This document shows positions 2,096 to 37,339 of a stretch of 42,924 nucleotides of DNA, one piece after another. Every line of letters starts with the position of its first letter. The stretch's first letter is position 1. Location of the stretch: positions 62,001 to 104,924 of the forward strand of contig QPGO01000219.1 in NCBI GenBank assembly GCA_008632985.1. The letters run 5' to 3'. Position numbers and translations under genes: made by a program. A model generated the notes under the pieces. It saw nothing but the letters and a program-made list of their open reading frames with translations, did no database searches and was not told the DNA's origin. Source of the stretch: Psammoneis japonica (taxonomy: Eukaryota).

Positions 2096-3038
2096 TTTTA
2101 CGACAATGGTTGTGGGAAAAGAGACAAGACTCGAGTGGATGGGGCCCAAAAGAAACCGACTTAGGTTGAAGCTTCACGTTGTGTGCACCTTTGCTGCTGG
2201 GCATCGCTGTTCAGTTCGCTGTCACCACCAATCTGCTCGCGTTGCACTGGGCGAGCGGGAAGAGCGAATGCGGCGGTTTGATTTGTCGAAATTTAACCGA
2301 CACCAAAAATTCAAATCGTAAGTAATCAAAAGATTTGCATAAATTTCATTTCACAATACTTAACAGCGAATGCGGAAAGCGGTTATGCGACATTTGGACA
2401 TCGCTGAATTGACGACCAACAACGTACATACCGGTAGAAACTGGACCTACGTCAGAAGCTCAGTTATTCAGAACTTGATGCTGTTTGAGAGAGAGGGAAA
2501 AAAGCGCGGCGCGGCTCTTCTCGACCGTGGACCGAGTGGCGAAGGTCTTCCGTTGATTGCTGCGCGCGAAAGGTTGTGTGTTTGACGTTTGAAGACAAGA
2601 AGTCTTGAACCCAAATACATGTCAGAGACTCCTGCTGCACACCACAAAGCACCCAGCATCTGTCTGCACATGTCATTTCTGCTGTTCGCAGGAGATCATC
2701 AACAAACCTGTTGTGCCCTCCTGAATCACATTTCTGCTGCCACAAAGATCAGATTCACTCAAATCTCCAATGAGCCATGGCCAAGAAGAGGAAGCAATCT
2801 GGAGTGGGCCAGCAATGCAAGTCAGGAGCTGGTGACAGCACACCAAAAGCAAAAAGTGTCATCAAAAAGTTTTTTCTTTTCCAGGGCAACCCGCCACCTC
2901 TCCCAAATCGACGCCAAAAGAGCAACAGCCACTCTCCACCCAACCTCATCTGTGACAATGCTGCCATCACTCCCTCCATTTTACCCATGACCAACCAAAC
3001 TCCTGTCAACCTAAAACCCTCCACAGAATGCCTCTGCT

Positions 3039-4050
3039 TTGACTCTCAAGCCTTTGACAAAACCCCACAAAGATCCTCAAAACAAGCACTGTGTGTCACG
3101 TGCAGCAGTCAAAGCAAGAGATGTTGTCTCATCTTTTGCCACCATTCAGGAGCAAAAAGCCTGTGGTGCCTTGCTTTGCACATTGCAAGTGCCCAATTTA
3201 AATTTTGTTGTTGAGGCTTGTGGTTTGACGCTGCCAAAAACGAAGGGCGCTGCTTTGCAGATGACCAAGCAGCTTGGCAAAATGTGGGGACAAGGACGTG
3301 CCAAGGACAAAAGCAGCAGTGGTCAGTGCTGCGCTGACAACAAAAAATTTCTTGTCCATTTGGCAGCAATTGGAACCTCCTTTTCTCCCAAAAAATCTGC
3401 TGATGAACCCAAATTGCCTGCGAAGGACTGCTTTGCCAGAGCACTTGGTCTGAATCCAAAAGCTGTCTGTTGACAGATGAAACAGGGCAAGATCACCAGA
3501 GTGACCTTGATTGAGAACAAAGAAAATGCTGTGTGGTCTTTGTTGCAACCCCATCAGCATCCTCACAAAAATGTTTCCCCTGAGGCCCACAACGCCTTTG
3601 CACACCAGTTGGGAAATCATCCTGACACAGCGCAGCTGCCCAACTCAAGAGACACGACTCTCACTCAAGGTGAAGATGGAAGAAAAAATGAGTGAACCAA
3701 TGGTCATGCAACGTGTCCACATGTCAGCTCCACAATGACATGTTGAAGCTTGTGCCCATGATGCCAATGGCAAGACCCTGGCCAGCAACAGCCACCATGA
3801 TTCACTTTTTGATTCCCAAGCAACATTGAAAAATGACGAGCAGTCAAAGGTTTCAAGGAAGGCTTTTAAAAGAGATGCAGGTGGCACAGCAAAAATGGTT
3901 GAAAGTTGCAATGATGACCCTGCAACCTCTGAGAACTGTGGCAGTGAAACTGGCAAGAATTTGGAGAGTCAAACTTGCCATTGTCAAGAGGAAGCATTTG
4001 GCGCCAACTCCAATCACCTTTGTCCTGAAGCTCAACATGCAATTGTGACC
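3039..4050 (+). pseudogene. Degraded coding relic, probably from a mobile element
   Basis: Protein-like segments continue across frameshifts and TGA stops (..CFARALGLNPKAV.., ..NHPDTAQLPNSRDTTL.., ..QLHNDMLKL.., ..HFLIPKQH*KMT..). Family not identified with confidence. Confidence 0.35.
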
Positions 4051-4279
4051 ATCATTTGTGAGAGACAAGCTGAAAGGTGAGAGAGGTTGGTGATGATGAA
4101 ATCTTGATCACAAAGAGTCGCCAAATCTTTGACATCAGGAGCAATGGTGTCTTTTTTCTTCAATGCATGTGGGCTCCTCAAATTCCCCATCTGCTGTGTG
4201 TTCCAACACTGCCTTTGGAGCTTCAAGCTGGTGCACATGTGTTTCACCTCATGTTCCTCATTTCTAAGGCACCAATTTA

Positions 4280-5080
4280 AAACCACTTGGTGTCACTTGC
4301 TGGCAGCACAAAATGTTGGTTGGAGTCAAAGATCCACCCACAGCATGAGGCAATGCATTGGTTGTTCACTGGATGGCACAATGTCATGCACAGCCATCAT
4401 TGCAGGTCATCACATCAAATTTGTTGCCCACTTTCAAGGAAATGGCCCAATCCAAACTGCAGCGAAACTTCATTTTGGAGTTCCTTGGTGGGAACTTTCC
4501 TTTCAAATGGCTGCTCAGCATGCTCGTTGCAAATGATGCACAATTGTTGTCAGCTTCAATCTGTTTGGTGGATGTTTTGACATGAGATGCAATGTGATCT
4601 CTCATTTCCAAGTCATCAACATGATGAAGAACACTGGCCAGGGACAAAAAAATGCAAGTGTCTTTGTTTCCTTGCAAGAATTTCACAGGCAGGCTGCTTG
4701 TCAGCAAGCCTGGCCCAATCTCCATTGACGACAACATGTTTCCTTCCAGCAATGAGCAAAAACCATCCTCTGGCTTCCAATCTTTCAATTCCTTCCAAAC
4801 ATCTGGAAACCATGTCTTGAAATTGCACTCAGCCCAATCTTGGGTCAAACAGCATTGGAAGACCATCAATCTCCTCCTGACTCATTCTCTTGACTTTCAC
4901 AATCTGTGTTGAATTGCAAATCAAGTGTGCCTTCCACTGAATCTCTTCCATGCCTTTTTCATCTACAACCTGGACTTTGTTGGGCTTGTGCTTGGCACGT
5001 GCAATGACTTCAACACACCTGTTCATGGGACAGCCCCTAAATTCATTGGCAGTGTCACTGAACCGTTCTTCAAACAACAT
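4280..5080 (-). pseudogene. Degraded papain-fold (C39-like) cysteine peptidase-domain gene
   Basis: Ordered motifs PVKFLQGNKDTCIFLSLASVLH (Q..C helix), then ..PMHC.. (His), then WIFDSN at 4319-4336 after a frameshift, then VLNWC. This is the Q-C-H-D arrangement of papain-like folds. Confidence 0.5.
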
Positions 5081-5552: not shown

Positions 5553-6491
5553 CTACCATTCATTGCGCCTCTTTTCATGGCACACATGACGAATCGTAAT
5601 GGTGCGACCACAAGACTCCCTCAATCGATGGACAACATCATCCACGTGCGATGGCCGTGTCCAGTTGATCCTACACCAAGATTCTTCAACATGATCCGCT
5701 ATAGAAAGATGGGGGTCTTCCTCCTCCATACAAAGACTGCAGGATACCTCCTTTCGCAGCCACGTAAAAGATGCAAAGGTATGTTCGTCCCAGATCGCAG
5801 ATAAACGGGTTCGAAGTTTGGGTAGCTCTTCGATTACGAACCATTCCGTGTCGCTTCCATACGGCTCCTTCAGCTCGGGGCAGTCACGCGATGAACCGTC
5901 CTTTTTGAGTTGTCTGGCGCACAAGCACTGGAGTGTTGATGGTTTTGGTAGTTGTTGCTTGCGAGCCCAGAGTTGAAGCAAAGCAGCATCGGCGTGATTA
6001 CGATCCACGGAACTGGCCAGATCAAAATACGAAACCAAATATTGGTTGCAGGCATCCCGGTTACCAAGACCAAACTCAACCATGGAAGCAAGAAATAATG
6101 CTTCAGGCAAGTAGTATGCAGGCCAGATGCCTAGGACAGTACAATCCAAGAGCAAAGACTTGATAACTTCTTGGGCATCTGTCCACTTTTTGGCATCAAT
6201 CTGCAAGAATGCTGCCCACCACCGGATTGATGGAGCATCGGCTTCATCATTGTGATCTCTGGTAGTATCCAAGGCAGCCTGGATTGCGCTAGCGCGTTGG
6301 ACGTCTTCATCCGGTGACCGTGGGTCAAAGGTGAGCCTGGCCAATCGGACAATTCTTGGTGGGGGGACGGTGCAATCATTCAGCTCGATCCGACCGTGCC
6401 AGAGTGTCACAAACGGACAAGCACGAAGACCATCGCGAATGGCCGCCCATCCCGCTACGCGATCATTCCCGAACATGAGGGGTCTCATCAT
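5553..6491 (-). CDS. Hypothetical helical (TPR-like) protein with Cys/His-rich C-terminus; may be the 3' part of a gene that includes 6488-6868
   Basis: Intact 312-aa ORF with normal TA/CG/Tyr content between two mutated tracts. A decayed paralog lies at 7440-7700. Confidence 0.6.
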   Translation of the reverse strand: MMRPLMFGNDRVAGWAAIRDGLRACPFVTLWHGRIELNDCTVPPPRIVRLARLTFDPRSPDEDVQRASAIQAALDTTRDHNDEADAPSIRWWAAFLQIDAKKWTDAQEVIKSLLLDCTVLGIWPAYYLPEALFLASMVEFGLGNRDACNQYLVSYFDLASSVDRNHADAALLQLWARKQQLPKPSTLQCLCARQLKKDGSSRDCPELKEPYGSDTEWFVIEELPKLRTRLSAIWDEHTFASFTWLRKEVSCSLCMEEEDPHLSIADHVEESWCRINWTRPSHVDDVVHRLRESCGRTITIRHVCHEKRRNEW

Positions 6492-6868: not shown

Positions 6869-7439
6869 GGTTGCAGGTTTCTGCCTTTGATGGTGCTTTG
6901 AGGTGTATGGTGTCTCCGTGAAACTGACACTGTTTTTTAGCGGTTTGGAGCCAATCAGAATGGAGCACGAAATTTTCAACAGTGCGTAGACAGCAAGTAG
7001 ATAGAACCTTGTGCCACAAAATGCTCGAACAATGCAAATCTATTACGGGTGGTAGAGCGAACCCAGTTATTGCTACATTGTACGTTGTGATTTTGCGGGG
7101 CAACTCTACTACACTAGGCTTGTTTTTCTTGGCAAATGTATGCAGCTTGCATTCTCTCGTCAGCACTGCTCTCTCCTAAAAATCAGAGGCGCTCGGCTTC
7201 TTTTTCCATCGCCAACAGCCCAACCAATTCGTCAGTCCCTGTTGCTGACGACACGCCACGGCAAAAACCACCACACCATGAAGATGCAATCGACAGGCAG
7301 CTAACGTCGACGACGAGTGACTGTGATGCATCAGCAGAATCTTTGGGACCCACCAGGCACTGTCGTCATGCTTTTCCTTTGGCACTGAGCTCTCCACCAG
7401 GAGCACCAGTGTGTCGTCAGCAGCAAGGTCCTCTTAAAA

Positions 7440-7700
7440 GGCAGTGCAAACCAAGGGTGCAGACTTGACAATTTCTTTGGCATTGGTCCATTTTTGGCAT
7501 CAATCTACAAGAATGCCACCAACTGGCTTTGGACTGTTGGAGCATTGGATTCATCACAGTCATCTCTGGTGGCAGGCATCTTCCTCCTGTGCCGATCTTG
7601 TGACAGCCACTTTGTTGCAAATTTAACAAGTGCCAAAATGTCTCAAGCCCTGTCACAATGAAATCAAGCTCAAGGTCTCCCTGCCAGAAGAAATGACAGT
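7440..7700 (-). pseudogene. Decayed paralog fragment of the 5553-6491 gene
   Basis: cagtgcaaaccaag..gacttgacaatttc..tttttggcatcaatctacaagaatgc..ggagcattggattcatca..tctctggtgg aligns to 6137-6266. Protein FFWQGDLELDF aligns with TLWHGRIELND. Confidence 0.75.
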
Positions 7701-8989
7701 GCTGACCTTGCTGCTCATTTTCCATTGTCAGAAGCAAGTCTCCAGAAAGATGCTGCTTCAGCCCCTGTGCTTTTGTGTCTTGCCATGCTGACCCTTCTTT
7801 GTTTTTCTGTTGCTCTCCCTGAGCCCAAGTGCTTCACACCCTGGGCTTTCTGAAACATTGTTGTTGTGCCCAATCATGAGATTGCAGCTCAGCTCCCAAA
7901 GATGTGCCAACATTTTGAGCTGCCAGCTCCCAAGTGCACTGCCCTTGTGTCCACGGAGAAATTCCATTGTCTCCTCACCCCAACAATGGAAGCAGCCAAA
8001 CAAAGTTGGCACATCATCTTTTCTGTCAAATGCCAAGGGGCACAGCAAATCTGAAGGTTTTCATTGCACCCTTGGTGCCAACCAAGTGTTTGAGACATGC
8101 TTTTTTGCTTGGGTGCACATGGCAGAATTTTGAGTTTTTCATCAGATCTGTCTTTCTGGAATTGTCCCACTGCTGCTTGCCACAGATGTTTTAAAGTGAG
8201 GCTCTCCACTCTCAGAAAACTTTGCTGCTCCGGCCACTCCCAGAAAACTTTGCCACTCCAAATTCACTGACCCTCATTCTTGTTGCAGCACAAGCAGCAA
8301 CCTTTGAGTTCATTCAAGGGTGCCAGGCCCACCATCATTTTTGAAAATGTCTGCAGCAGGTGTCTTGGGCAAACAAGAATCAATGTCCATGCAGCCCAGA
8401 TTGTCTGCAACATGCCCAACAAGAGAAAGCACTGCCAACATGCAAGGAAGGTTGTCACGTGTGAAAACAAGAGTCGGGTGGCTCTGTTTCTTGTTTGCCA
8501 CCTGCTTGGCAATGTGCCACTCCAATCTCATTTCAAGCACTGGGAGGGGCAATGCATCAGCAAAAGTTTTTGTGATGTCTGTCAAGTCCCTGCAGTGATG
8601 GAAACACCTGTCAATCTTGAAAGCACATTCTGACACCAGGCATGGTCAGAAAGACACCCCAACAGCTGCTTTTGAGCTCATGATGCCATGTGAGTTGAAG
8701 TCATTGGTGTGGTGGCTCTGAATGTCATGTCAGCAGTCACATCAAAGTCAAACAACCAGGGCTCTTTTTGGCAATTTCAAAGTTGCACATTTTTGTTTCA
8801 GCAAGTTTGCTGCAAGCCAAACTGAGCACAGGTTGTCACAATCACAAACTCGTTGTCAATCTGTTCAGCAGCTGTCTTGCAACAAGGCACTTCATTGGGG
8901 TTCTCTGTTTCCTTTGCTTCAAATTTCAAGCCTTCAAAATTGTGCTTCTTGTGTGTGACATCTTTCAACCCCGGCAACTTAAAGTTCAT

Positions 8990-11376
8990 TGCAATTTTAA
9001 CAGCAAAAGAGAAGCAAGCTTTCCATCAGCTGTCTTTTGCTCAATTGCTGCTTCCACAATGTCACACAAACAAAGAATTTTGTTGGTGAAATCACACTTT
9101 GGCTTTGCTGCCTCATGCAGTCCTCTTGTGTTTTGATCTTTTTTCTTGGCATGCTGCTCCACTTGCCAACCATGGTTGTCAGTTTTGGCAAGTTGCACCT
9201 GCTCAAAGTTGGGTCCTGCTGATGGCCAGCACACAGATGCCACCTTTCCCTTGGAATCCAAGTCTGGCAGAAACCCCAGCTCACTGAGATCTTGGTGTGA
9301 CATTTGACCCCATTCTCCTTGAGTCTTGAGCAGCTTGCTTCTCTTCTGGCAAAGCTGAGGGGTGCAAGGGTGATGGCAGGTTTTCAACAACTCTTCAAAA
9401 ACTGGCATGGACTTTGTTTCTTTGTGTCTGACATTTCAGCACTGATGAAGCCATTGACAATGCTCTTGCCAGAAATGATGCAGCCTTCTCCAAGGCTGCT
9501 GGAAGACAGCAGAGGAACCCAACAAGAGCTTTTTTCTTTTGGCCCACCAGTTTGACATTGTGTTTGCTTTTGGCTCATTCATCATGGTGATGATGTTTGC
9601 GCTCAAGCCAACAATCAGGTCGTCTCTTGCTGTGGATTCATTTAGGATCTGCTTGATCAGTTCAAACAGTTCTGAGAGATCAGCTGGCTGCTGCACTCCT
9701 GTTGTTGTGCTGCAGAGCACTTGTTTTGGCACAGCAAATTGCTGACCTTGTCTGGCTTCTTGCATGTCTTGCACAAAAACATCTGAAGCTAATTTGCGCA
9801 ACCATCAGACCATGACACACCCTTCGACCAATCTGTGGCAGGATGACTGGGACTCTCATCTTGATCCCACCCAAGAGCCCACCAACAAACTGGCCAAAAA
9901 GCTCAGGCAGCAACACATGATCTTGCAGCACTGGAATTTTTTGTTTGCAACAGTGGCCCCACTCTCATCATTCTTGTTGGCATGCAGCAAGACAAGCAAA
10001 GCCATTGAGATCAGCAGGGGGGCAACATTTGTGGGTGTTCATTGTCAGAGACCAGGGATTTCAACAGCCAAAATGCCATCAACAGGGAGCTCCCCATCTG
10101 TTGAGCCAGTTGCCACAACATGCAGAGGCACCATTGGACCACCAGCTGCAAAAGTGAATGCAAGCCAAGGTCAAAGACTGCCACTGCTGAGTGGGTTGTT
10201 GTCCACCTTGTGCATCAATTAACCACCAGTCTCCTCAGCTAGATCAGTGAGCTTCCAGCTCCATTTGTGACTCGTCTTGGCACCTTCAAAAGCAGAAACA
10301 GTTGCATTGTGTCAGTTAAAAGGATGAGTTTTGGGTTCACCAGAAACAACTTTTTTGTGCTGCACTCAGCTTTTGCAAACTTGACAGTTTTCTTGGCTTT
10401 GATGCTGAGCCTGCTCCACTCTTGTCACAATGCTCCCACCCTCTCCATGACTTTGGTCCCTCAATGAGGTGTGCACTCAGTGCAGTGTTTTGACATGTCA
10501 GCGCCATTGGAATCAAATTTGTGCTGATGATTTGAGTCTTGGTCTGGGTTGCAGACTTCTTTTTAGTCAACAAGCAGCTTGCTCCCTCCACAGTCAACAA
10601 GCAGCTGGCTCCCTGCATGGCACCGGGGTCAATTGTCTTTTGGCAGTGTTGTTTGATGCTTCAACACCAGACTGCTCTTCCATTGTCTCTTTCATTTCTG
10701 TCAGGCCAAACTGTTCCCCAATCACAGCCTTCACCTTGGCCATCACCACAGTCTGTGGTGGTGTGTGGCTCATCATTCAGGGTTGGCCTGTGAAGCCAGG
10801 TCCATTTTGCATCAATTTGCACAAGCCAGAGATGTGAGCAATGAGGCATCATGTTGATTTCTTCAGGGCATGAAGCAAAACAGCAGCCCACCTTTCCTTG
10901 CTCTTGGCTGGGTGTCAGGAAAGATGCTCACAGAGCTCTGGGCTGTTTTTGACCAACCAACAGCTTTGCTGAAAGGGTCGCACATTGGCAGAGCCTTGGC
11001 ATTTTTTGGTGGCATGACAACTTTCACCCACTTTGAATTTCTTACATTGACATTTGCTTCAACCTCCTTTGATGGTTGCTTCAATGATGCTGCCATCTTT
11101 GCTGCCAGCGCTTTTTTGGAAGCCCAAGCAACAATTTTCAGCTGCAGCAAAGGGAGCAGAGGTGGACTCTCTCATCATTTGTCCACCTCAAGTGAGTCAC
11201 ATGACACCACAACATGCTTCACTTGTGAAAGTTGTGAAGATTGTCTTCATCCCTTGCAGCAAATCCACCCAGCTGCCTCCACAACAGCTCCAAGCTTGCC
11301 AACAACCCACCGAATCTTGGCTGCTTCAGCACCCTTCTTCAACAATTTCACCGCTTTCAAAATGTTTTTGACTTGA
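8990..11376 (-). mobile_element. Degraded pogo/Tc5-like (DDE_1) transposase
   Basis: Motifs in order on the minus strand: VNPKLILLTD (~10340-10312); LAFTFAAGGPMVPLHVVATG..ELP..EIPGL (~10165-10050); VSWSDG (D at 9804-9806); STTTGVQQPADLSELF (D at 9679-9681, compare TTxxLQPLDV of DDE_1). Multiple stops and frameshifts. Confidence 0.6.
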
Positions 11377-12399
11377 CCAAGCATCTCAAGTGTTCATCAT
11401 GCCCCTTGAACATGCCGGGTGTCCACAACTTACTTCGCCTTTTCTGGTTTGCTGCTGCTGCCAGTGTTGCCACTGCCTTGTTTGTTTGAAGCTGTTGGCA
11501 TGATGAGACTCAACTTTTTTGAGGATCATCACAAAATGTCACTCACATGCCACCCACACAAAGGCTCAAATTTAAGTTTTGCAAGACACATTTCTTCCAA
11601 GTGCTGACAGACCCTAAAAAAAATGCTGAAACCACCAAATTTGTGCACAAAAGACAGTGACCACCTTGAAAACTGCAGCATCTGCCCATTTGCCAACAAA
11701 AAAGCCCCGCAGGAGAGGAAGCTTTGCTGGATCAGCATGATGCCAAATGGGCATGATGCAGTGGTGATGTCAGTGCCTTGGAAGGCAACAGGGGCACAAT
11801 TGATGCTGTCAGGCACATCATTGGTGGGCCAGCTTGTCACACACAAGAAATGCCACATGCACGCAGATTTTTTGTTTCAAATTCTGCAATGTCACCAGTT
11901 TTTTAATTTGGCATCTTGTGGTCTCTCTCTGCACCTTCTCTTCAAAAGAGACCCAGACACAAGCTGACAACCAAAGCAACAAACCAGAACAAGAATGGAC
12001 ATGCTGCAGTGGGGGACCAGTGCACAGCTGGGGACTGCAACCTCAGCTGCCGGTGTTGGCCTGCCAGCATTTGTTGCAATGTGTCACACAGTGCAGGGCT
12101 TGTGCAAGGAACAGTTGGCTGATGCTGGGTGGAAGACAAAAAAGCCCCTGTGCCTCCACAACACACAGAGACAAACAGACAAACACAGTCAATCAAAAGC
12201 AAGAGTTCACAAAAAGAAGCCAGAGTTTGGCTCAGCAAAGCAACCAAACAAATGCAAAGCAAGTCCTGCTGAGCAACCAGGGTGCTTTTTCCTGCAATCC
12301 CACGAACTTGGCTCAGCCCAAATGAACTTTACAACCTTCAACATTGCTTGGGCATCATTGTGCATGTTCACTTGGTCATCTCCCTTTCTCATTGGTGGT

Positions 12400-14300
12400 G
12401 CCTGCTCATCTTGCTCAACTGAGCTGACAGTGCTCTTTGGGCTCTTGGTCTTGGTGTTGAGGTGCAAAAGCCACAAAGATCATTGCTGTCACTTGCTCCA
12501 GTGATGGATTTCAACATCATCTCCTTCTGGTGTTTGTGGTGTGCACCTTCCACCTTTTTCTTCTTCTTCTCTTCCTTTTTGTCTTTGAGCTGCAAGTTCT
12601 CCTCTGCAGCTGTGTCTCTGCCTCACCCAAATGATCTGCACTCATCTCCTCAGCTTCCATCTTGTGATGACAACAATGCATCCTTCTTCAAAGCAAGTGC
12701 CACTGTGGTTGGGGAGCTGCCTTGCACAAATCAGCAATGTGAGCCAGCCGCAAATTGAAATTTTCTTTCTTTTTTGCATCATCTGAGAATTGCTGTTGTG
12801 ACAATTCTCTGTCATTTGTGATGGCTTTTGCCAACTCAGAGCACCACTTTGGCAAAAAAGACTTGCACAAACAGCTGCACCTCAAGTCCAGAAAAATTCT
12901 TGCTGTCCTTGTCAGCCAAGAGAACATGCAAGAACACATGGTTGCACCACCTGCCAACAACAACATCATGCAATGCCTCCAACAGTGACACCATCCCTTG
13001 TCTTTGTGAGGGTGTGGACCAAATGTGAAAACTTTTCTGCAACCCTGAATGCCAGAACAACATGCCATGTGAGTGTCCTTTTCCACATTGTCCAAGAGTC
13101 ATCAGGATTTGTCCTGCTGCAACACTCATCATGAAAAACATGACCATCATTGTTGTGAATGTCAGACTTCTTCATCTTGTTCCACTTGACAACTGGAGCA
13201 TGACGCAGCTTGTTGTCCACCTGCTTCATCTGAGCACCTTCTGATGCAATGGAATGATGGTTGTTTGTTTCACACCAATCCCCTTGACCGTAAAAAGGGG
13301 CAGCACTTTGTGACATGTGCAAACTTGACGTGCAATCCCTTCAACACCAAATGTCCAATTTGTTCTTCTTTTCTGACAGCATCTTCACTCTCTGACAACT
13401 GTCAAACACAATCTTGCCAAAAGGTGGCTGCACAATCTTTTTCATGTGTCACGGCTCAACTTTTCAGGTTTGCACTCTTCCAAATCACCAACATTGACCT
13501 GGCTTTCTTTGTGAGTTTCAAGCCTGACAGTGCCAAAATGACTCTCTCACCAATGTCGCTTCTTTTGTCAAGTGGTTTGTCCCAAACTCAGGATTGGCAC
13601 TTGCTTGTTGCAGCTGCATGGTGGGTGATGTGCTTTTGGCTGGAGTGAGGCCTTGCCAGAACAACTCCAGAGCTCGCTGGAGCAACCAGCTTCTTTGCAC
13701 ACAGCACAAAAGTGTTGTCTCCATCATTTGCCATGAGAGCTTCTCCCACTCCCAGCGCTCCTTGCAGACCCCCACTTTCAAGTCTGAGCAGTGAGACATG
13801 GCACCCACAACATTCTCAAAACCCAACACTTCCTTGTGACAAGACAACAATGTCTTCTGACAATGAAGACATGCACCCCACTTGTTGTTCACACCAAAAG
13901 AAATGGCTTGAACAAGCCCATCCAAAAAAAGACAACCACACAATGCAATTGGATGGTGCAATTGTCTGTTCATCATCACCCACCCCAATCATCAAAACCA
14001 AAAAGTTTCTTCACATGCTGAACATGGTCAACAAGCACACCAACTCCACTCTCTTGACATGGTGCAACAAAATGGCAACAGCAAGACATTTCTTTGTGGC
14101 GCCCCTTTCCAACATTCCTGCCCAGCACCAACATCATCACCATGTTGTTGTTCTTGTCACCCAGACATTTCACAGTTTGTGGTCCATTCTCATGGCAAAA
14201 TTGTTCTTCAACAAACCAATCAGCAACAATGTTGTGGAATGGGTTTTCTTGTTGTTTGATGGATTTGAACCCCCATCAACACCATTCTTGTGATGAACAA
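12400..14300 (-). pseudogene. Further degraded coding relic(s), unidentified
   Basis: Minus-strand protein-like pieces (QLKDKKEEKKKKK; KWCSELAKAITNDRELSQQQFSDDAKKKENFNLR; KWNKMKKSDIHNNDGHVF) broken by frameshifts. Confidence 0.3.
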
Positions 14301-17300
14301 TGTGAGGTGGGACAGAAGGCTGGTCTTTTGGGTTCCAGAATCTTCTGTGGTCAACTCACTCAGCCACACAAGACCTTGTGGGCACCACATCTGGGGATCA
14401 GTTGCAGTTTGAAGACATTGCCAGTGCCAAGTTTTAGAGACACCCTGCTTTGAACAATGTCTTTCCATTGTGTTGACAAACCTCTTGACTTGAGGGGACA
14501 ACTTTGGCAAAAAAAATTGTTTGCTTGAAGGGTGCCACCACCAACAGAAGAATCTGCCAGCTCTTGTCTTTTTTTGGTGGCTGCTGCAGCTGGCATGACC
14601 ACTGTGATTGCACTGATCACACACTTGTGTGTCTGCATGACAGATGCACTCCAGAGAGGGGCCCAACATCAGCCAACACAAAATTGAAATGGATGGACAG
14701 AGGCAGCCTCCAAGGCAGTTCCAGATGACAAAAGCACCAAGACACTGAGAATCACAGCAAACAAACTGAAACAGGAGTGCAGCTGGTGCACTGGTCATGC
14801 ACTTGTGTTTGTGCAACAAATGCACTGCAGAGAGGAGGTCAACATCAGTCACCACAAAATTGAAACAGGTGAGCAGAGAGGCAGCCTCCAAGGCAGCTCC
14901 AGATGGCAAACACAAAACACCAAGCATTGCAGCAATCAATTGAGTTGTTGTTCAAGACAGTGGCAGTTTTTGTTCAGAAACTGTTGGGGTGAAGAAGAGT
15001 TTGGCAGAAATTTGGAATGAATGACGAAAGCAACTGAAAAATGATGTGTGCAAAGCAACCAAAAAATGACATGTGCAGTGCCTCTTGCATGAATGGCACC
15101 AGCACTGAAGTGCAAACAAAAAAATGAAAGAGATGGGGTTGTCCACAAGAATGAAAGTGACTGTGCACAGACACAATTGTCTTGTGATGACAATGAGACA
15201 ACTTTCAAATAAAAACAACAGACAGCTCTGTGCAATGCAAAGGGAAAGAGGGGGTTGCAGAGTGGCAACAGCAGCATGCTGCATTGTGGCTCATGCATGT
15301 GGAAGTCAGCATTGATCAATGCACTGTGAGAACAACATTGCATGCCATCTGATGCCGTTCTTTTTGTGACAAAAGTGCACTCCTTTTTGATTGAAAACAT
15401 GATGCACTCTCATCATCACAATTTTGTGTCATCATCAAACACTTTGATGTTTGCCGAATGCCCAAAAATGTGATCTCTGCTGGTGGAGACAAAATTGTCT
15501 GGTGCTGAAACCCGCATTGAAAATCTCACATGACATGTTGCAGATCACCTGGAGCTGGAACAGGCCACCAGGTGACATGCAAACTGACACTTTTGTCAAC
15601 TTGTTGCACATGTCAAACACACATTTGAGCACACACATCTTCAATGCCAGCATGAAAAAATAAAATGCCTCATCTGCAGGTGCCATGCTCCAAGGGGCTT
15701 AATTTCTCAATGAGAAACAAACTCCAAAAGTGACAAACAGCATGCTCAATGAGAAAATGAAATGACAGCACAGGACAGCAGCTGCTTCCTCCACCTTGTC
15801 ATGACAGGAGCAGTGCCATTCAGGCCACCACACTTTGCTTGGTCTGTGGATTGTGGATGCCATTTCTCTTTTGTCCACAGCAAGCAATGGTCACAGACCT
15901 GCCTGCAGTGATCTCAGTGACTTTTCATTGAAAAGTTTTTGCACCTTCTTCTCAGGCCATTTTGCCCCCACCCTGCTTTGCAGCCAATCAACTTGAAAAT
16001 GTGATGCCATTAAATTTGATGCCCTGATGCTGCACAAAGAGTGGCGCACACTTTTTAGATGATGTCACACAGCCCACAGCCTGTGTGTCAACAAAAAGCT
16101 TGCAACAAGTTGAACAAGGTCACATGCATCATGCATGTGTGATGCTGACTGGTGGGTTGAAAGTGCCAGCCTTTGTCATTGAAAAGCAGCTGCTTTTGTC
16201 AGTGAAAAAAATGATGGCTGCTTTGGGCAACTTCCTCCAATTGTTTCAATCTTTGTGCACAAGAGTTTGTTGAATGACGTGGCATGACATGGCATCTAAG
16301 AAAGAGAGAGAGAGAGTTCCAAAACCTTGTGCAAATTTGTGTGCTGCTGTGTGAGTTGCACAGAGGTGGAACCCAGTTTTCATGGCTTTGATCTTGCTCT
16401 GCAGCTTTGGCAGAGCTGGAGGGCAACAAAAAAAGCTTCTGTCAGTTGCTTCAACTGGGTGTCATTCAGCAACTGAAGCCCTGCTGCTGTTTGCTGCGTG
16501 GCATTGGTGTCCAAATGAGCCCACATGGTGCATTGTTTCTGTGTTGCACAGATCTGTTTTGGGGGCCTTGCGCACAAGGAGTCTCATGGTGCACCAGAGC
16601 AGGCATCACACTCATCCAGATTTGCTTGGGATTTTTCCATGCACAAAGGGGGGGGTTGGATGCAACCCTCTGTGCACAGCTGGCAAGTCAATGCTGTCAC
16701 TGAAAGGGAATCCCATTGGGCTTTCTGTCCCACTTGATGCACTCCTTGCCTTGGCAATCTGCAATGGCTGTGGGGGTTGCCACAAGGTGTCAATGCAAAG
16801 TGCAAAGTGTTGCATGACAACAGGTGCCTGCTCACACCCAATGCAACAAATTGTGTGAACCAAGTGACTCGCTCCAAAGAGTGAGGTGAAAAAGAAAAGG
16901 CAAGGGCTGGTGACTCTGAGACTCTTTTTGCAAAGTCACTCAGCAAACCACATCAGCACATGAGCTAAAACATCTTTCCTTCAACATGTCTGGGTGCCCT
17001 GCAGTGCTTTAAAGTTGGTCTGGTGGCAGCACTGAGGATTGGCGTTGCTTCAGCGCTGACTTCTTTCAAGTCAGAGCTGGGCAGATTGGTGCACTGTCTC
17101 CCACCAGAGAAGCCAACCAATGCCAGTGTAGTGGCGGACACATGCACTCACAAATTTCTGTGCTCCGCATCTCTGTGCTTTCATGTGCACTCCCCACTGC
17201 ACTGTGCCCTCTTTGTCTGCAGGGCACCCCACTTCAGCAGCCAGAAGGGATGGGATCTCATCCCAAGCAAATTTTGGTCATCCCTCTCTTCCTTTGCATC

Positions 17301-17564
17301 AACAATCAACTGACACAAATCTAAAACATCGCGACGGATGCAGGGGTTGTCACTCAACTGACTCTTTCTGCTCTCGAGCCATCGAACCATTTCAATCCTT
17401 GCCTTCTGGAATTCCTCATTCTGAATTCCTTCCATTGTCATGGCCACATCCATTTGCAGCTGCTCTCCGTTTTCATTACGTGTCGTTCCCGTGAGGAGCA
17501 TCTCGCCCATGTCTCCCAGCTCTCTAAATTTACACCAGTAATTCCGCGGCCACCGCTGGGCAAA

Positions 17565-17758
17565 GTGGCAGTCGGTCTAGTACAACACGGCCTCCTCGGC
17601 CAACGATGACGGAATCGAAACATTGGAGTCACATGGGTGTTGACACAGCTGGTGACAAAAGGAACAGCTCTCGAGTAGGGAGGGGATTCAAAAAGTTTGG
17701 AGCCGGTTCAGCAAAGTTTTGTCCCGCAACAATCTTCGGACAAGCCGCCTTATCTGAA
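17565..17758 (-). pseudogene. Local duplicate of an internal EPL1 segment (source 18206-18432)
   Basis: 194 bp alignable to 18206-18432 with 12 substitutions and deletions of 8 and 25 bp. Confidence 0.95.
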
Positions 17759-17882
17759 CGCCCCTCGGCAATTTGCAAGATTGCCGACCATTTCTGCTCC
17801 CACTACTCTGCATACTTATCTACAGAATGAGCAGATACAGCATCTGCAGTCAATTCTAGAGTCTATCATTTAGTCTTGCTGG

Positions 17883-19682
17883 CTAGAGCGGACCGATAGC
17901 GAACCTCTCTTCGCCCCAAAGCTGATCATCTGTATCCAACCAATCATCAACCTTCACAAGGACGGCTTCCCCATCGTTATCATCTGTTTCCGGAGTGGCT
18001 CCCGCAGTACCCGGTGCAGTTGCAGGAGTTTCGAAGTCATCCTTGAGAGCAGCAACACATATTTCTTCGATTCGCCGACTCAGATTTACATGGTCTAAAG
18101 GTTGAGGTAAAAGGTCAATCAGCCGTTCCTTGGGCTTGTCCGATCGCTTCACGCAGTCACCAGCTGTGTAAACCGTTGGTGGCGGCATTGTCGGGTGACC
18201 AGGATGTGGTAGTCGGTCCAGTACAACACGACCTCCTCGGCCAATTCGTGGACGATGACGGAATCGAAACGTTGGAGTCGCATGGGTATTGACATAGCTG
18301 GTGACAAAAGGAACAGCTCGGTCCCAGGATGTGACATATGACTCTCGAGTAGGAAGGGGATTCAAAAAGTTTGGAGCCGGTTCACCAAAGTTCTGTCCCG
18401 CAACAATCTTCGGACGAGCTGCCTTATCTGAAGACATCCCTTGACGAGCCGCTGCACTCTCATCGATTATATCCCCCGACGTTGGCATTGGAGAGCGTCT
18501 TGATGAATCGAGCTTTCGCTTCCTTCCTCTCTTCGCGGCAGCCTCAGATGTATCAAAACACTTTGGTACGTCAAGTAGACTATCCAACGCTTGACGACTC
18601 AGATTAGAGCTCAACCGACACCACCCACTCGTGTCAACAGCATCGTACATTCGCTGATCAAACAAGTCTGCTTGCATTTGAATCATTGATCGATTCAACT
18701 CTTCTCGTCTCTTGACCAAGTCCAGCATGACGCGAACCATGTCAAAGTCACTTCGTAGCTGCTTCATTTTTCGAAACGCTTCCATGTCATTTTGACGCTT
18801 CTTTCGTAGCTTGTACTTTTCCTTCTCGCGTGGCCTAAAGACAAGATGAGGATTGGTATCATCGGTAGCCGTAACAGGCCAAAACCGTCGAAGAAGAGGT
18901 CGCTTCAATTTTGAACGCTTCTGCAACCAATAAGTGTAAACGTCTTGGATGACATGCTTGACTGTAACTATTCCAGCGCGTGCCTTTACAGGAAACAAGT
19001 GCAAAAGCTGTGGGACTTTAGAAAATAAAAGGCGCTCCGCGTGATCCGTAGTAATGATGGTTTCGAATCCTGTTTCCTTTTCGAGAGCGTCAATCATTTG
19101 TTCAAGCATACCAAGAGATATCTGTGGCCGACGACGAAGCGAAGTATGATCCAAACTATCATCACTTTGATGCGAATCAACAGTTGGTGTGGATGCGCCG
19201 AATCTGGTGTTGCTCTGGAGCCATGCCTCGTCTTCTGCGTCAGCATTGTATTCCAGTTCTGTCGATAGTTGCTCCTCCGTTGGTTTGCGATAACGAACAT
19301 AGGATCTTGGTATCTGGTAGTTTGAAGGAACATCGGTGCCATACGTTTCTACATCGATGATTCGCGGTGTCGGGATTTCCTTCTTGGGCTTGGGTTGCAT
19401 GGACGGCGTCTAAAATAGAGTGTTGCAAGATGAAAACTTCAAAATGTGAGAGAAATCACGTCAAGTCTGTATGTCAACCGACGCATTGCATCATGCAACC
19501 TGGTTACCGGTATGAATACGTACCGACGTTGATGCTGCCTTTCCCAAATCAGCCACTGTCTTTATGTTTCCATCGCTATCTTCATATTTCAGTGTATCTG
19601 ATGCGCGCCTCACTATCGCTATCTTTTTGTAGACATTGAGTGCCGACACTCCCTTGATTGCCGGTGCAGTCGGCGGCGCCAT
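17883..19682 (-). CDS. EPL1: Enhancer of Polycomb-like protein (NuA4/TIP60 subunit); exons 19682-19524 and 19409-17883
   Basis: EPcA motifs IPTPRI..Y..P.SYVRY, EYNADAEDEAWL, VYTYWLQKRSKLKRPLLRRF, DTNPHLVFRPREK, and FRHRPRIGRGGRVVLDR. In-frame GTACGT..TTTTAG intron at 19523-19410. Confidence 0.9.
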
Positions 19683-20260
19683 GATCTATCGTCGATCGAT
19701 GTTGGATTTTACCGACGAGGAAGGACGTTGTGTGCTCGAGCAGAGTTGACTTCCGGGTGCCTCTCCAGTTTCTGTATGATAATTCAATATCACATTTCAT
19801 CATGGATATATTCAAAAAGTGTCACTATCAAAACGATGAACTTTAGAATTTTTCCCTTTACGATCCAACGGATGGTCAACCTAAACCGGATCTATCCATA
19901 ACATACAATTACGGAATTAATCATAAAGAAGACATTTTTCATAGCTGACGGTTGGCGGCATTTTCGTATATTTTATATATAGAATATAAAAAACTTACAT
20001 AAGTCTTCTCTTCGAAATTTGGGTCACGTACGTTTTCACGTCATCGTGGTACACACGCAGATTTTCGATCAACCAACAGAGCACTGCGCTGGACGGGCGG
20101 AGGAGTTGCTTTTGCGTTGTTGCGTTGTTGAGGTAACCGCGAAGGCAGTCCCAGTCAACTGTAGAAGAACGTTCCGCTGCAATTCATATCTCCCGTGTCT
20201 TTGCAAAGAGTACTTCCCAAGGCTTCACGAGGAACCCACGGGATTGTTGTTGAGAGAGAA

Positions 20261-21948
20261 ATGGGACTCATGGACAACAACAGAAACATCGACCGAACGA
20301 GAGAACCTGAGAGCTTCAATACCAGCAGCAACAACAACAACCTCTTTGACGACGAGCAACCCATGATGGACAGATCGCGAGTAGCTAACCAAAGCATGGC
20401 GCCGTCGGAGAACGTTCCACATGATCTTGGGATGGGGTTGGGCGATCAAGCTACCTCTGAAATTGAAGAAAGTAAAGCATCGCGATCCTTTCGGCGTCGA
20501 AGTTTACTCAAAAAGAAGAAGAAGAAAAAGGGCAGTCAAAAGAAACTCCCCAAGGAAGATATGGATCCTTATGATTCGGACCCTGGCGAGAGCTATCGTC
20601 AGCATTGCCTTCGCGTCAAAGGTATCAGTACTAGGACCTGTTTCGCAAGACCGAACTTTATGCGGCCGGCGACGGATGACACGGTTGCGACAGACCCTCC
20701 CTCGCCCCTGAGCGAACCGGAGGATGTGTTGAACCAGACACCCGTTTCTCTTCCAGCCGGAGTCGATCCTGTGCGATACTCGCTTCGAACGGCTATAGGG
20801 GACGGCTCAGAGGAGCAACCAACGGGACCGAGCGTAATGGAACGCCGGGAGTTAAGGCCCAATGGGGTACACGTGAATGTAAGCCACTGGAGTGCTACTG
20901 GAGCAAGACCTTACATGGAAGATCGGTAAGTTTTCTTTGATGCTTTGCTTTGAGGAGGTCTGATAGCCTGTGCTCACTTTTTGTTGCTGTACTGTTGAAA
21001 ACGCAGATATGTCGTGGAAGACATGGGTACCGTTCAAGTTAAAGTGAGCCCTGTTGTAAAGGGATCCCCCGCTGACGGTGGTGTAGAAGTTGCTCACGTG
21101 TCCCGTCCTCAGCGACGCCTAAAGATGCCACTCGGCTTCTTTGGGGTCTTTGATGGCCACGGCGGAGAAAAGGCAAGCCAGTACTGCGCAGACTGGATGT
21201 CCTCCTACGTTAAGACTCGAGATACCTTTCCTTACGATTTGGGCTACGCTATGAAGAACGCCTTTAATTCGATCGACGACGACTTTATCAACACGGGATA
21301 TCCAGATGGCACCACTGCCTGCGCTGTGTCATTGGTGGGAGGCCGCAGGATAGTCTGCGCCAACGCGGGTGATTCTAGAGCCGTTGTGGTGCGCAGAGAC
21401 GGGTCGGTGGTGCGACTCAGTAGGGATCACAAACCGGGGATTCCAGACGAGACCCGCCGCATATCGGCGCTTGGTGGGCGCGTCATTTACTGGGGGCGTT
21501 GGAGAGTTGAGGGGCTTCTTGCTGTATCTCGCAGTATCGGCGATGCTTCTCTCAAGCCGTACGTGACGGCCGAACCTGAGGTCTGCGAGTATGACGTTGG
21601 GGAAGACGACTGGTTCCTTGTAATATCTAGTGACGGCGTTTGGGATGTCATGGATAATGAGGAGGCTGCGCATGTCATTATTGCCACATCCTGCGTGATG
21701 GAGGATGGTAAACTTGTTATTGACACTGATCGATTTAAGTGGGCAGCAAGAAATCTGTGTGAGCATGCAAAGTAAGTGCTACGTCAGCCTGGTATTTGTG
21801 CCTGTTTCGTTTCGTGTGCCCTGATACTTATTGCCGCTTCTTTCATTCCAGATCATGCGGTTCAACAGACAATTTCTCTGTTGTTTGTGTAGATCTGCAG
21901 AGCTGCAGAAGTTCCAACTCAACGTCTGGTCGCTACGAGCCAAGATAA
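20261..21948 (+). CDS. PP2C/PPM Ser/Thr phosphatase with long N-terminal extension; exons 20261-20925, 21007-21771, 21852-21948
   Basis: Motifs GARPYMEDR, FFGVFDGHGG, DGTTA, NAGDSRA, DHKP, LAVSRSIGD, SSDGVWD and GSTDNFSVVCVDL, joined in frame by GT-AG introns. Confidence 0.95.
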
Positions 21949-33227: not shown

Positions 33228-33780
33228 TCGTAGATTTGTAAGAGTGGGACTTGACCGGTTTTTCCCCTCGAATTTGAATTCCGATTTGAATACCGGCACA
33301 GTAGATGGGTCACAACTCGTGATCGGTTAGTGGCTTCTCTAATTATTAAGAGACATTTCTGTGTAGATTGGATACAACAGATGACGTTCAGTAGAGCAAT
33401 GAACTTCCTCGTGTCCATATTACTCATACATTCTAGTGTTGCAAGAGGCAGACGTTGTTGTGACCTTTGAAATGTCTTTTCAAGATTGTGGCTGTGCTTG
33501 TGTTGTCCAATGTACGTGAAAGGCAGGCACTGTACAGTAATCTGAACAGAGGCAAAGACATGAGCGAACAGTCATTGGTAGCTAGAGACCTCTCTATCAT
33601 TCAGCATCCAGTGACCACATGTCTTTTGTTCGTACATGCCGCATCATCGCATCTGTTGAGGCTACTCTCTATTGTACTAGGCCCTTCCATTGAACAGCCA
33701 CAGCCAACGACGGGCTCCTTGACGATGCAGTTGACGGAAGATTTATGCCGGTCTGGTCTGTCTCTATCCATCCAGCCTCC

Positions 33781-36510
33781 TGAAGCGGTGCCGGCATGGA
33801 AAGACATTTTTTCAGTTTGTCGAACGTGCTTGTAGACTCGGAGTGCGCACAGAGCAACAGAACACGAACTTCAGCTGTTGCAACATGTTTTGTGAGAGAA
33901 CGTTCATCATCGTGAAGCTTGCGGCCCCCTCACCGCTGACCTTCACCAGCGTCTCTTGTGGTTTTGGCGCGTGCAAACCATCGTCGCGCTCTTGGGCTCT
34001 CCAGAGGTGTCTGCAGTGGGACAGACACTTCTTTCCAGCAGCATGTCTATGACCAATGAGTTGCAAAGACAAAGGAGGAAATCTGGGCAAGTGCGCTGGT
34101 CTTGAGAGTTCCTCCGCAAAACCTTTGAGCTCTGGCAAGAAGACCGTTTCCCGCATGAGGCCAAAGCATCGCCGATCCCCCAGCGCACACATTGCGGTCC
34201 AGGAGATGCTCCTGTCCCTTGCAGAGGTGTGTCTGTGTTCGAAGTCCCATCTCGCCAAAGAGTTGCAAAGACAAAGGAGGAGATCCAGGCAAATGTGCCA
34301 GTCTTGAGAGTTCCTCCGCCAAACCTTTGAGCTCTTGCGAGAAGACCCTTTCCCAAGGCCAAAGTGTCGCCGAGCCCCCAGTGCACACATTGCGGTCCAG
34401 GAGATGCTTCTTTCCCTTGCAGCAGCATGTCTGTGTTCAAAGTCCCATCTCGCCAATGAGCTGCAAAGACAAAGGAGGAGATCCGGGCAAACGCGCCAGT
34501 CTTGAGAGTTCCTCTGCCAAACCTTTAAGAGCTCTTGCGAGAAGAGTGTTTCCTGAGGCCAAAGCATCGCCGAGCCCCCAGCGCACACATTGCGGTCCAG
34601 CAGATGCTTCTTTCCCTTGCAGCAGCGTGCCTGCATTCTAAGTCCCATCTCGCCAACAAGTTGCAAAGACAAAGGAGGAGATCCGAGCAAATGCGCCAGT
34701 CTTGAGAGTTCCTCCGCTAAACCTTTAAACTCTTGCGAGAAGAGTGCTTCCAAAGCATCACCGAGCCCAAAGCGCATGCATTGCGGTCCAGGCGATGATT
34801 GTAAAGACAACTCATGGCAGCTGAGCCAAGAAATGGACAAAATGATGCGAGGCACATGTCAGCAAAATCAGTCCTCAAAGCACACGTTGGGGATTCATCG
34901 CCAGCATGGACGTGCGAAACATGTCGCAAACAAAGACACACCGGCATTGTTCATTTGGAGATTCATCACATGGCCCACCTGTGCAGCTTTCATGTGTGTG
35001 TTTCCGGAAGCTTGGAAAGAAGCATTGCAGAGAATGGCATGAGATGTTCTTCATTAAATTCGCAACAAGCGATCGGAACGTTGTGACTTCAAACGATCTT
35101 GCAAGGGGCCCGACGTCATTGCCAATGTCGTTGGAAGGAGTTGGTTGAAGCGGCGCCGGCATGGAAAGACATTTTTTCAGTTTGTCGAACGTGCTTGTAG
35201 ACTCGGAGTGCGCACAGAGCAACAGAACGCGAACTTCAGCTGTTGCAACATGTTTCGTGAGAGAACGTTCATCATCGTGAAGCTTGCGGCCCCCTCACGG
35301 CTGACTTTCACCAGCGTCTCTTGTGGTTTTGGCGCGTGCAAACCATCGTCGCGCTCTTGGGCTCTCCAGAGGTGTCTGCAGTGGGACAGACACTTCTTTC
35401 CAGCAGCATGTCTGTGACCAACGAGCTGCAAAGACAAAAGAGGAAATCCGGGCAAATGCGCTGGTCTTGAGAGTTCCTCCGCAAAACCTTTGAGCTCTGG
35501 CAAGAAGACCATTTCCCGCATGAGGCCAAAGCATCGCTGATCCCCCAGCGCACACATTGCGGTCCAGGAGATGCTCCTGTCCCTTGCAGTGGTGTGTCTG
35601 TGTTCGAAGTCCCATCTCGCCAAAGAGTTGCAAAGACAAAGGAGGAGATCCAGGCAAATGCGCCAGTCTTGAGAGTTCCTCCGCCAAACCTTTGAGCTCT
35701 TGCGAGAAGACCCTTTCCCAAGGCCAAAGTGTCGCCGAGCCCCCAGCACACACATTGCGGTCCAGGAGATGCTTCTTTCCCTTGCAGCAGCATGTCTGTG
35801 TTCAAAGTCCCATCTCGCCAATGAGCTGCAAAGACAAAGGAGGAGATCCGGGCAAACGCGCCAGTCTTGAGAGTTCCTCCGCCAAACCTTTAAAAGCTCT
35901 TACAAGAAGAGTGTTTCCTAAGGCCAAAGCATCGCCGAGCCCCCAGCGCACACATTGCGGTCCAGCAGATGCTTCTTTCCCTTGCAGCAGCGTGCCTGCA
36001 TTCTAAGTCCCATCTCGCCAACGAGTTGCAAAGACAAAGGAGGAGATCCGGGCAAATGCGCCAGTCTTGAGAGTTCCTCCGCTAAACCTTTAAACTCTTG
36101 CGAGAAGAGTGCTTCCAAAGCATCACCGAGCCCAAAGCGCATGCATTGCAGTCCAGGCGATGATTGCAAAGACAACTCATGGCAGCTGAACCAAGAAATG
36201 GACAAAATGAGACGAGGCACATGTCAGCAAAATCAGTCCTCAAAGCACACGTTGGGGATTCATCGCCAGCATGGACGTGCGAAACATGTTGCACACAAAG
36301 ACACACCAGCATTGTTCATTTGGAGATTCATCACATGGCCCACCTGTGCAGCTTTCATGTGTGTGTTTCCGGAAGCTTGGAAAGAAGCATTGCAGAGAAT
36401 GGCATGAGATGTTCTTCATTAAATTCGCAACAAGCGATCGGAACGTTGTGACTTCAAACGATCTTGCAAGGGGCCCGACGTCATTGCCAATGTCGTTGGA
36501 AGGAGTTGGT
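33781..36510. repeat. Tandem duplication of a 1365-bp unit (33781-35145, 35146-36510), each containing about four ~200-bp subrepeats
   Basis: tgaagcgg(t/c)gccggcatggaaagac at 33781 and 35146. Subrepeat anchor (t/c)tgcaaagacaaaggagg at 34061, 34263, 34461 and 34661, and again at +1365. Confidence 0.97.
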
Positions 36511-37215
36511 TGAACGGGCTGGCATCACTTCTCGTTTTACCAACATGGACAGCTTCGAGATTCCCACCCTGGCGAACCCAAGAAGCCAGCAATTCACGTG
36601 GTCGGTGCAACAACGGGCCATGAACAAGCACTTGTGTCTTTTCGTTATTTGTCATGTTCAAATTTTCCATCGAGGCTTCACCTTGAAGCCATCGCTCAAT
36701 GTCTGCGTGACAGCAAAAACGCGTCAATCCTCCGGCACCAAATCTGGCCTGTTCGCGACACATCTGAGGAAGCAGCTTGACATTGTTTCTCCATGATTCC
36801 TCTCTTCGACTGTGGAGTCAAAGCTGTGTTGGCTTTCTTGATGATGAATTTTTTTCAATGATGAGAGCTGCCAGCAATTGCCTTTGCCTGTTTCGTTCCA
36901 AGATTCAATTCTTCGTGTGAGTTGCTTCTCGGACGACGGACGCTTCAGAGCAGGCAAGCAGCGTGCCAGCACTCCAGAGGCCGTGAGTGTGCAGCAGTAT
37001 TTGACAATGACAAAAGCTTGTAGCTTGACCAGCATCAGCAACAGCCAGCACCACGGGGGGTGCCTCATTGCAAATGTGAGAGACGAAAGATGACACAACT
37101 GCGTTCCAAGCCTGCCCTTTTTCGTTCCAAGCCGTTTCACTTTCAAAAATGAAAAATTGAGCAAGAGCAACTCCAAGAGGGCGATGCTCTTGTTGTGGCA
37201 CGCTTTGTCAGTTCT
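33781..37215. other. TpA-depleted but largely CpG-retaining tract III
   Basis: TA is rare and mostly TTA/TAA, while CG is still common (e.g. tcgtcgcgct, ggcgcgtg). Confidence 0.85.
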
Positions 37216-37339
37216 TCTACTACATGTTTTCGCGATTACTCTCTAGCTAGAAATGACAGCATCTGCATGGGCGATGGATCTTTTGGATCTTGAATTTTTT
37301 TTTGAAGAATCCAAAAAATTCAGTCTCAGTCCATTTTTT

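Follow-up and report, generated by a model that had tools for sequence, protein, structure and literature searches.

A decayed EPL1 exon copy beside repeat tracts poor in TpA and CpG in Psammoneis japonica

The RIP process of ascomycete fungi, which is set off by duplicated sequence and requires a RID-type methyltransferase, changes only C to T, makes TpA from CpA and turns the DNA on which it acts AT-rich. Among A-to-I editors, a preference for U or T on the 5' side is found in ADAR hyperediting of retroelement RNA and in the action of TadA/ADAT on U33-A34 of tRNA. Gene-fragment pseudogenes, for their part, arise by local duplication, as templated filler DNA at repair junctions or through Pack-type transposon capture. 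CpG-type hypermutation of transposable elements has been reported in basidiomycetes (PMC3318451), and diatom transposable elements have been reported to be CpG-methylated (PMC9998398). A search of the full-text literature outside subscription journals and supplements found no account of diatom repeats that have lost TA together with CG, and the loss of TpA in situ beside that of CpG in such repeats appears to be undescribed so far.

The stretch of DNA that we analysed (the window; 42,924 nucleotides), from the pennate diatom Psammoneis japonica, contains three tracts of unusual dinucleotide composition, with a transition-compensated, context-dependent lack of TA and, in tracts A and B, of CG. 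Tract A (2587..5063), a repeat tract, has 8 TA and 22 CG in 2.4 kb, at observed/expected ratios (o/e) of about 0.05 and 0.17, respectively. Tract B (7416..17329) is repeat-derived and was delimited by composition, with a TA-poor zone that is wider than the tract itself (7178-17476). It averages o/e values of about 0.04 for TA, 0.09 for CG and 1.85 for TG/CA, with local ranges of 0.01-0.07 for TA, 0.02-0.14 for CG and about 1.6-2.3 for TG and CA; in absolute terms, it retains 28 TA and 46 CG in 9.8 kb, compared with 629 and 915 in 15 kb of background. The two transition products are found in similar numbers on the strand as read (TG 1078 versus CA 1180), and G+C is 0.46-0.47 in the tracts versus 0.48 in the background. 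Tract C (33766..37217) is built of tandem units of about 200 bp in two 1365-bp arrays that are 97% alike; it is poor in TA (o/e about 0.1) and has kept most of its CG (o/e 0.6-0.8).

These tracts are diverged repeats. By X1 contig depth, a rough measure only, their bins stand at 137-398 against about 60-63 in unique DNA, and 142 of the 241 X1 contigs placed on the region are only 88-95% alike. Tract A is joined to families of tract B in another genomic contig (joint 4106 to 16968). Reading tracts A and B in six frames through stops returned no Pfam domain, including no reverse transcriptase, and a Pfam search with 17 long ORFs found no real family in the tracts. Since the tracts are without TAA and TAG, they carry long spurious ORFs in all six frames. 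From 14688 to 17600, for instance, where TAA and TAG are lacking, every one of the six frames holds overlapping ORFs of 60-240 aa; tract C is open in many frames, and its 348-aa ORF (33812-34858) has no Pfam match. Gene finders could call spurious genes in such tracts, composition-based gene finding could be biased by them, and homology-based transposon annotation is defeated.

Beyond the right border of tract B, on the minus strand, lies EPL1 (enhancer of polycomb-like), a real, conserved and spliced gene. The coding part of exon 2 (17883..19409, with the stop codon TAG at 17883-17885) is defined by Pfam PF10513, homologs and a spliced contig; the 508-aa ORF matches PF10513 with E=1.1e-10. 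A GT..AG intron (19410-19523), skipped by a contig of run X2, separates it from the exon 1 coding sequence (19524-19682), which was taken from the spliced contig. The exon 2 ORF has 365 homologs, and all the named ones are from diatoms (for example Nitzschia, Epithemia, Seminavis and Cylindrotheca); the closest shows 61% protein identity in the search table and 64% in the ortholog alignment. Within this exon, the segment 18206..18432 encodes the conserved block ...AGQNFGEPAPNF...PTFRFRHRPRIGRGGR..., in which columns R384-R394 are invariant across 38 aligned sequences. The EPL1 transcript contig of run X2 ends at about 17845. Run X2 is labelled 'DNA?', yet its contigs are without the GT..AG introns of EPL1 (19410-19523) and of a PP2C gene (20925-21005 and 21772-21851), and it behaves as a transcript assembly in skipping these stretches. 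Within 2000-21999, its contigs give no cover over 2667-17340 or over the EPL1 copy described below, which is not evidence on expression.

Past the end of this transcript contig, at 17565..17758 on the minus strand, is a dead partial copy of EPL1 exon 2 that corresponds to ORF residues 326-402. MAFFT and a repeat search align it to 18206-18432 in direct orientation and in three blocks (92, 94 and 95% identity), which together cover 194 of 227 bp at 94% identity across aligned bases. Twelve substitutions separate the two sequences, 11 of them transitions. Listed from source to copy on the plus strand, in source coordinates, these are T>C at 18210 (in GTA), C>T at 18219 (in CCA, making a TA), A>G at 18231, G>A at 18271 (in CGT) and at 18280 (in CGC), A>G at 18288 (in TAT), T>C at 18295 (in ATA), A>G at 18354, C>G at 18385 (the sole transversion), C>T at 18393, G>A at 18416 (in CGA) and T>C at 18420 (TG to CG). 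Among the aligned sites, three of six TA and three of 13 CG differ in the copy, which has also gained one TA and one CG, and half of the differences (6/12) fall within the 38 bases of TA or CG sites. On the plus strand, A>G is seen as well as T>C, and the two together make up 6 of the 11 transitions. Changes affect 3 of 12 TA bases and 3 of 26 CG bases, compared with 6 of 156 bases that belong to neither dinucleotide (one-sided Fisher test, p=0.0185 for TA and p=0.12 for CG); both values are uncorrected and come from three events each, and the TA enrichment is only nominal. Our tabulation bears out the preliminary description of this DNA in full, including the 12 substitutions, 11 transitions, three lost TA sites of six, two deletions and CTC microhomology.

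The two deletions, of 8 and 25 bp, shift the reading frame between them. The larger has a 3-nt CTC microhomology (blocks end at 17670 and start at 17668), and the smaller a 1-nt overlap at 17603, where the end of one block is the start of the next. In the gene, the 25 bp and the 8 bp that the copy lacks code for TRESYVTSWD and RPRIGRGG, two blocks conserved in the orthologs, which makes both events deletions in the copy and not insertions in the gene. The copy thus shows homology to a parent that is a real gene, disabling lesions and no start or end of its own, as a pseudogene fragment does, and its replacements strike invariant residues (for example G342A). Homology past the fragment ends was not found by blastn (word 7), tblastx or purine/pyrimidine local alignment against 200 shuffles; since homology stops at these ends, a decayed full tandem duplication of EPL1 has no support. 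A purine/pyrimidine 36-mer self-search found no further hidden duplicates in the window, where the only long transition-blind (R/Y) matches are the EPL1 copy and a 75-bp tandem. The latter is an exact-register duplication (26078-26227, 97% identity) inside ORF 25111-26766, which has a SAP domain near its C-terminus.

Between the border of tract B and the copy lies a 235-bp spacer (17330..17564) with normal CG (13 sites, o/e 0.89) and low TA (4 sites, o/e 0.31). No homolog can be recognised for this spacer, and it shows no similarity to EPL1. A search with ORF 17181-17576, which runs into it, against 1.84 billion representatives gave a single weak match (E=3.6e-6) in the tract-derived part of the ORF, which was rejected as a usable gene fragment on these grounds. 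By the same rough measure of contig depth, 17341-18007 stands at 68, and the EPL1 fragment is a single-locus duplicate in single-copy DNA. Transposon-captured cargo of Pack or Helitron type does not fit this unique depth, and no multi-copy element is found over the fragment; the description of the fragment as 'captured' accordingly finds no support. The CG-poor part of tract B ends at 17329 and its TA-poor part at 17476, which places the copy about 90 bp beyond the TA-poor limit. Taken alone, the copy has a CG o/e of 0.86 and 4 TA where 6.8 are expected (P=0.2); together with the spacer (17330-17758) it has 8 TA against 15.3 expected (P=0.032). The preliminary view that host-derived sequence at the tract edge had been hit by TA loss has to reckon with a copy that sits outside the TA-poor zone and has a TA count that is not significantly low.

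We mapped the 12 differences on EPL1 codons and 37 diatom orthologs; the alignment polarises the five non-synonymous sites and leaves out the seven synonymous ones. At all five of the former, the gene allele fits the orthologs and the copy allele is never seen: T380M (T in 35 of 37 orthologs), A377V (P in 23 and A in 13, V in none), Y372C (Y in 26, C in none), G342A (G in 37 of 37) and R332C, a weakly conserved position from which C is absent. These five differences are derived in the copy, and comprise three CG losses, one TA loss (Y372C) and one transversion. The seven synonymous third-position changes include two TA 'losses' (CTA/CTG at L400 and AAT/AAC at N374) and the TA 'gain' (L397); they are not polarisable because they are unconstrained by the conserved protein and the closest ortholog has 61-64% protein identity. 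Of the transitions possible in the aligned segment, 68 are synonymous and 126 non-synonymous. From the four non-synonymous transitions seen, about 2.2 synonymous ones would be expected on the lineage of the copy and, if neutral rates are equal, about 2.2 on that of the gene, against seven synonymous differences observed. About half of these would thus be expected to have arisen in the gene itself, and for each of them an origin in the copy or in the gene is roughly a coin toss. The claim that TA loss is derived because the source is a conserved gene therefore stands for Y372C, one of three TA changes, and is a coin toss for the two synonymous ones, whereas the CG losses are polarised to the copy in all three cases. 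With one polarised TA loss, a nominal p value and a site outside the tract, the EPL1 copy alone is a weak witness of polarity. Using gene-fragment copies in this way is a sound idea, decisive only with many fragments and a close outgroup.

The simplest alternative is that the EPL1 copy is a small pseudogene fragment under neutral drift, its three TA changes reflecting chance and synonymous changes in the gene, so that it records no TA process. The nominal p value from three events, the large synonymous share of the differences (7/12, about half of it expected on the gene lineage), the normal CG of the copy, its insignificant TA deficit and its distance of about 90 bp from the TA-poor zone are all what drift would give. 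Against it stand the prevalence of transitions (11/12), the six differences that fall in the 38 bases of TA or CG sites, the TA deficit of the zone 17330-17758 and a second gene fragment deeper in the tract that shows the same pattern more strongly. We consider this alternative unlikely, though not negligible.

The second fragment (7442..7570, minus strand) lies inside the left edge of tract B and is 77.7% identical to 6137..6263 (minus strand), a segment of ORF 5553-6563, which belongs to a conserved diatom gene with three homologs (E 1e-105 to 1e-116). It contains no CG and one TA, which is newly made, having lost both of its core TA sites and both of its core CG sites. Orthologs polarise to the copy I134V (TA>CA), R114Q and D109N (CG>TG), as well as two two-step conversions, TG>CA at A117 and CA>TG at W115. 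One change runs against the trend: Q121stop (6203) is a TA gain and is likewise polarised to the copy. At 6230 (S112T, codon 112 of ORF 5553-6563), the copy has T like the orthologs (TTT) and the living gene has S, a difference better explained by a change in the gene lineage after duplication than by one in the copy; the caveat about gene-lineage changes is thus a real one. As judged from orthologs, the CG losses and at least one TA loss in each fragment are derived in the copies.

A further alternative is that the repeats were short of TA and CG before they arrived, as might follow from RNA-level editing or selection over many replication cycles, and that nothing happens in place. The six-frame Pfam search yielded no intact coding copy with which to compare, and paralogous contigs from elsewhere in the genome are poor as well (1 TA and 3 CG in 236 letters, counted by eye), both of which suit this idea. 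Yet depletion is just as strong in the host-gene fragment inside the tract edge, where losses are polarised, and the excess of TG/CA in the tracts equals the TA and CG deficit relative to the local background. When background TA and CG were converted in silico to TG or CA at random, the o/e of CA reached 1.89 and that of TG 1.94 at a G+C of 0.460, compared with 1.85, 1.86 and 0.469 in tract B; the simulation misses the tract o/e of AT (0.74), GC (1.30) and GA (0.88). Duplicates also show an excess of CA<->TG double differences, which require a short-lived TA or CG intermediate. The second fragment and its source have three where 0.47 are expected (P=0.012), and an intratract pair (14609-14764 and 14787-14939, 79% identity) has four where 0.65 are expected (P=0.0044); the EPL1 pair has none (0.08 expected). 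In tract C, six dinucleotide columns show only CA versus TG, and nine still show CG beside TG/CA.

The flanks bear on the same question. At three of four edges, TA-free gaps of 114, 148 and 122 bp extend outside the CG-poor borders (within 7178-7415; 17330-17476; 2466-2586) where CG is normal (P=0.009, 0.002 and 0.007), and such TA-free halos in CG-normal flanks are hard to reconcile with a composition inherited by the repeats. Together with tract C, they show that TA can be lost without CG. At its left edge, tract A is very CG-rich (12 CG in 121 bp). With all of these observations on the other side, we regard an ancestral composition as improbable; the preliminary claim that TA was lost in situ, and not inherited with the transposable elements, is backed by features of the window other than the EPL1 copy, namely the second fragment, the mass balance, the double differences, the halos and the TTAA bias among surviving TA sites.

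This bias is pronounced. In tracts A and B (2600-5000 and 7500-17300), TTAA accounts for 14 of the 36 surviving TA sites, compared with 5.8% of background TA and 7.2% of TG/CA precursors (survivor bias p about 1e-7 to 1e-8). TAA/TTA contexts hold 31 of the 36, and ATAT, ATAG and GTAC none; in tract C, TTAA makes up 6 of 20 surviving sites. A strand-additive model of the 3' neighbour, which assumes that the tracts began with background tetranucleotide frequencies, gives cumulative hazards of 3.36 for TAT, 2.12 for TAC, 1.19 for TAG and 0.34 for TAA, and reproduces all ten tetranucleotide classes (LRT chi2=64.5, 3 df). Tracts B, A and C have (TG+CA)/TA ratios of 81, 65 and 30, respectively, against 3 in the background; if the tracts are near equilibrium, TA there is tens of times more mutable than created. 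The two arrays of tract C, which are recent, differ at 39 positions, of which 15 are CG transitions and four are at TA, two in each direction; the latter could reflect ordinary TA gain from abundant TG/CA. Of 28 variant sites in paralogous contigs, 23 involve neither TA nor CG, which makes this set uninformative.

Selection rather than mutation might instead have removed TA and CG, were these deleterious in the tracts, for example as targets of nucleases or transposases or as spurious promoter signals. The preferential retention of the palindrome TTAA could in principle be accounted for by function. But neither a coding nor a conserved function can be detected in the tracts, and TA at an o/e of 0.01-0.07 across 10 kb, compensated exactly in transition products only and following a strand-additive hierarchy of neighbours, points to a mutational process, leaving selection very improbable. 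An assembly or sequencing artefact is scarcely credible, as the contigs of run X1 reconstruct the region, each piece departing from it by 0-2 letters, and physically link the tract to genes by spanning 4824-7860 and 15048-20989; the assembly may itself have been made from this run, whose agreement is therefore no independent check.

We therefore favour, with a probability of roughly 60%, a reading in which the copy is a non-functional, single-locus EPL1 duplicate beside tracts under in-place TA and CG decay. A 227-bp piece of exon 2 would have been duplicated, in the orientation of its source, to a site 641-674 bp downstream that lies shortly beyond the end of the mRNA, in the short single-copy spacer that leads from EPL1 to the 10-kb repeat-derived tract, probably by local templated repair or slippage and not by transposon capture. 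The copy would then have lost 8 bp and 25 bp in microhomology-associated deletions, and drifted. The repeat tracts, in turn, would be under two context-specific, strand-symmetric transition processes acting in place. One, presumably 5-methylcytosine deamination, would turn CG into TG/CA. The other would turn TA into TG/CA, that is, A:T into G:C at TpA, fastest at TAT/ATA and slowest at TAA/TTA, for which reason TTAA survives. This second process would reach about 115-150 bp farther into the flanks than the CG process and could proceed where CG is kept, as in tract C. The EPL1 copy would lie in or just past the TA-only halo, and its three TA and three CG changes are those expected from a weak dose of the two processes. 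In-situ loss of TpA beside that of CpG is reasonably well supported in this window. Elsewhere, the surroundings of EPL1 orthologs at 80 metagenome loci (448,679 bp, read in 1514 one-kb windows) contain not one such window in which TA and CG both have an o/e below 0.2, a count that does not show absence in other diatoms because metagenome contigs under-sample repeats.

As for the TpA step, we think a chromatin-targeted base modification or deamination most likely, with adenine deamination in a T-A context or a mispairing modified thymine as candidates. A tentative extension, which we hold to be doubtful at present, is a chromatin-targeted DNA mutator or genome-defence activity with a dedicated enzyme that erases TpA by A:T>G:C change, strand-symmetrically, in the order of hazard TAT>TAC>TAG>TAA, beside CpG decay but separably from it, and leaking about 115-150 bp into single-copy flanks. 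If true, this would be an 'inverse RIP' that scrambles repeats at constant G+C, with the EPL1 fragment and 7442-7570 as the first polarity witnesses of a TpA mutator and with an enzyme such as a DNA adenine deaminase of T-A specificity or a thymine-modifying oxygenase. The near-extinction of TpA (o/e 0.01-0.07 over 10 kb) would differ from the C>T processes RIP and CpG decay; the process behind it would be as strong as CpG decay or stronger, and separable, and would imply that the silent chromatin of diatoms is subject to a modification, to deamination or to biased repair.

How far, then, does the locus resemble the described systems? At the level of the fragment, the EPL1 copy is like known gene-fragment pseudogenes in being a short exon piece near its parent with microhomology at its later deletions, and differs from Pack-type capture in lying outside any multi-copy element, at unique depth. 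A-to-I editors share with the TA process the A>G outcome and the need for T or U 5' of the edited A, but they act at the RNA level, whereas the tracts were changed at the level of DNA and on either strand, as were a host fragment and flanks of non-retroelement origin. Hyperediting of RNA fixed by retrotransposition is likewise at odds with the near-equal TG and CA counts, with the presence of both A>G and T>C on the plus strand and with the lack of a reverse transcriptase in the six-frame Pfam search.

Decay of CpG by 5mC deamination, as in the methylated repeats of vertebrates and plants, is matched in the change of CG to TG/CA and the excess of TG/CA in silent repeats. Its marks are found here, with CG at an o/e of 0.09, TG/CA at 1.85 and polarised CG losses in both fragments (three in the EPL1 copy and two in the second fragment). 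As the whole cause it does not suffice, as TA is lost where CG is kept, in tract C and in the halos at three of four edges. RIP and the CpG hypermutation of basidiomycetes resemble the process inferred here in producing transitions in repeat-rich regions, in their dinucleotide context, in their leak into single-copy flanks and in the destruction of coding capacity. RIP itself does not fit on two counts. A>G and T>C supply 6 of the 11 transitions of the EPL1 copy, with polarised changes of TA to CA or TG at Y372C and I134V, and TpA is depleted (o/e 0.01-0.07) with no gain, at a G+C of 0.46-0.47 against 0.48. Where RIP creates TpA, the tracts lose it (o/e 0.04), with A:T>G:C making up half of the change and G+C remaining near 0.47. 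What the repeat tracts share with RIP and CpG decay, and the reason for likening them, is a regional, context-specific transition process on repeats.
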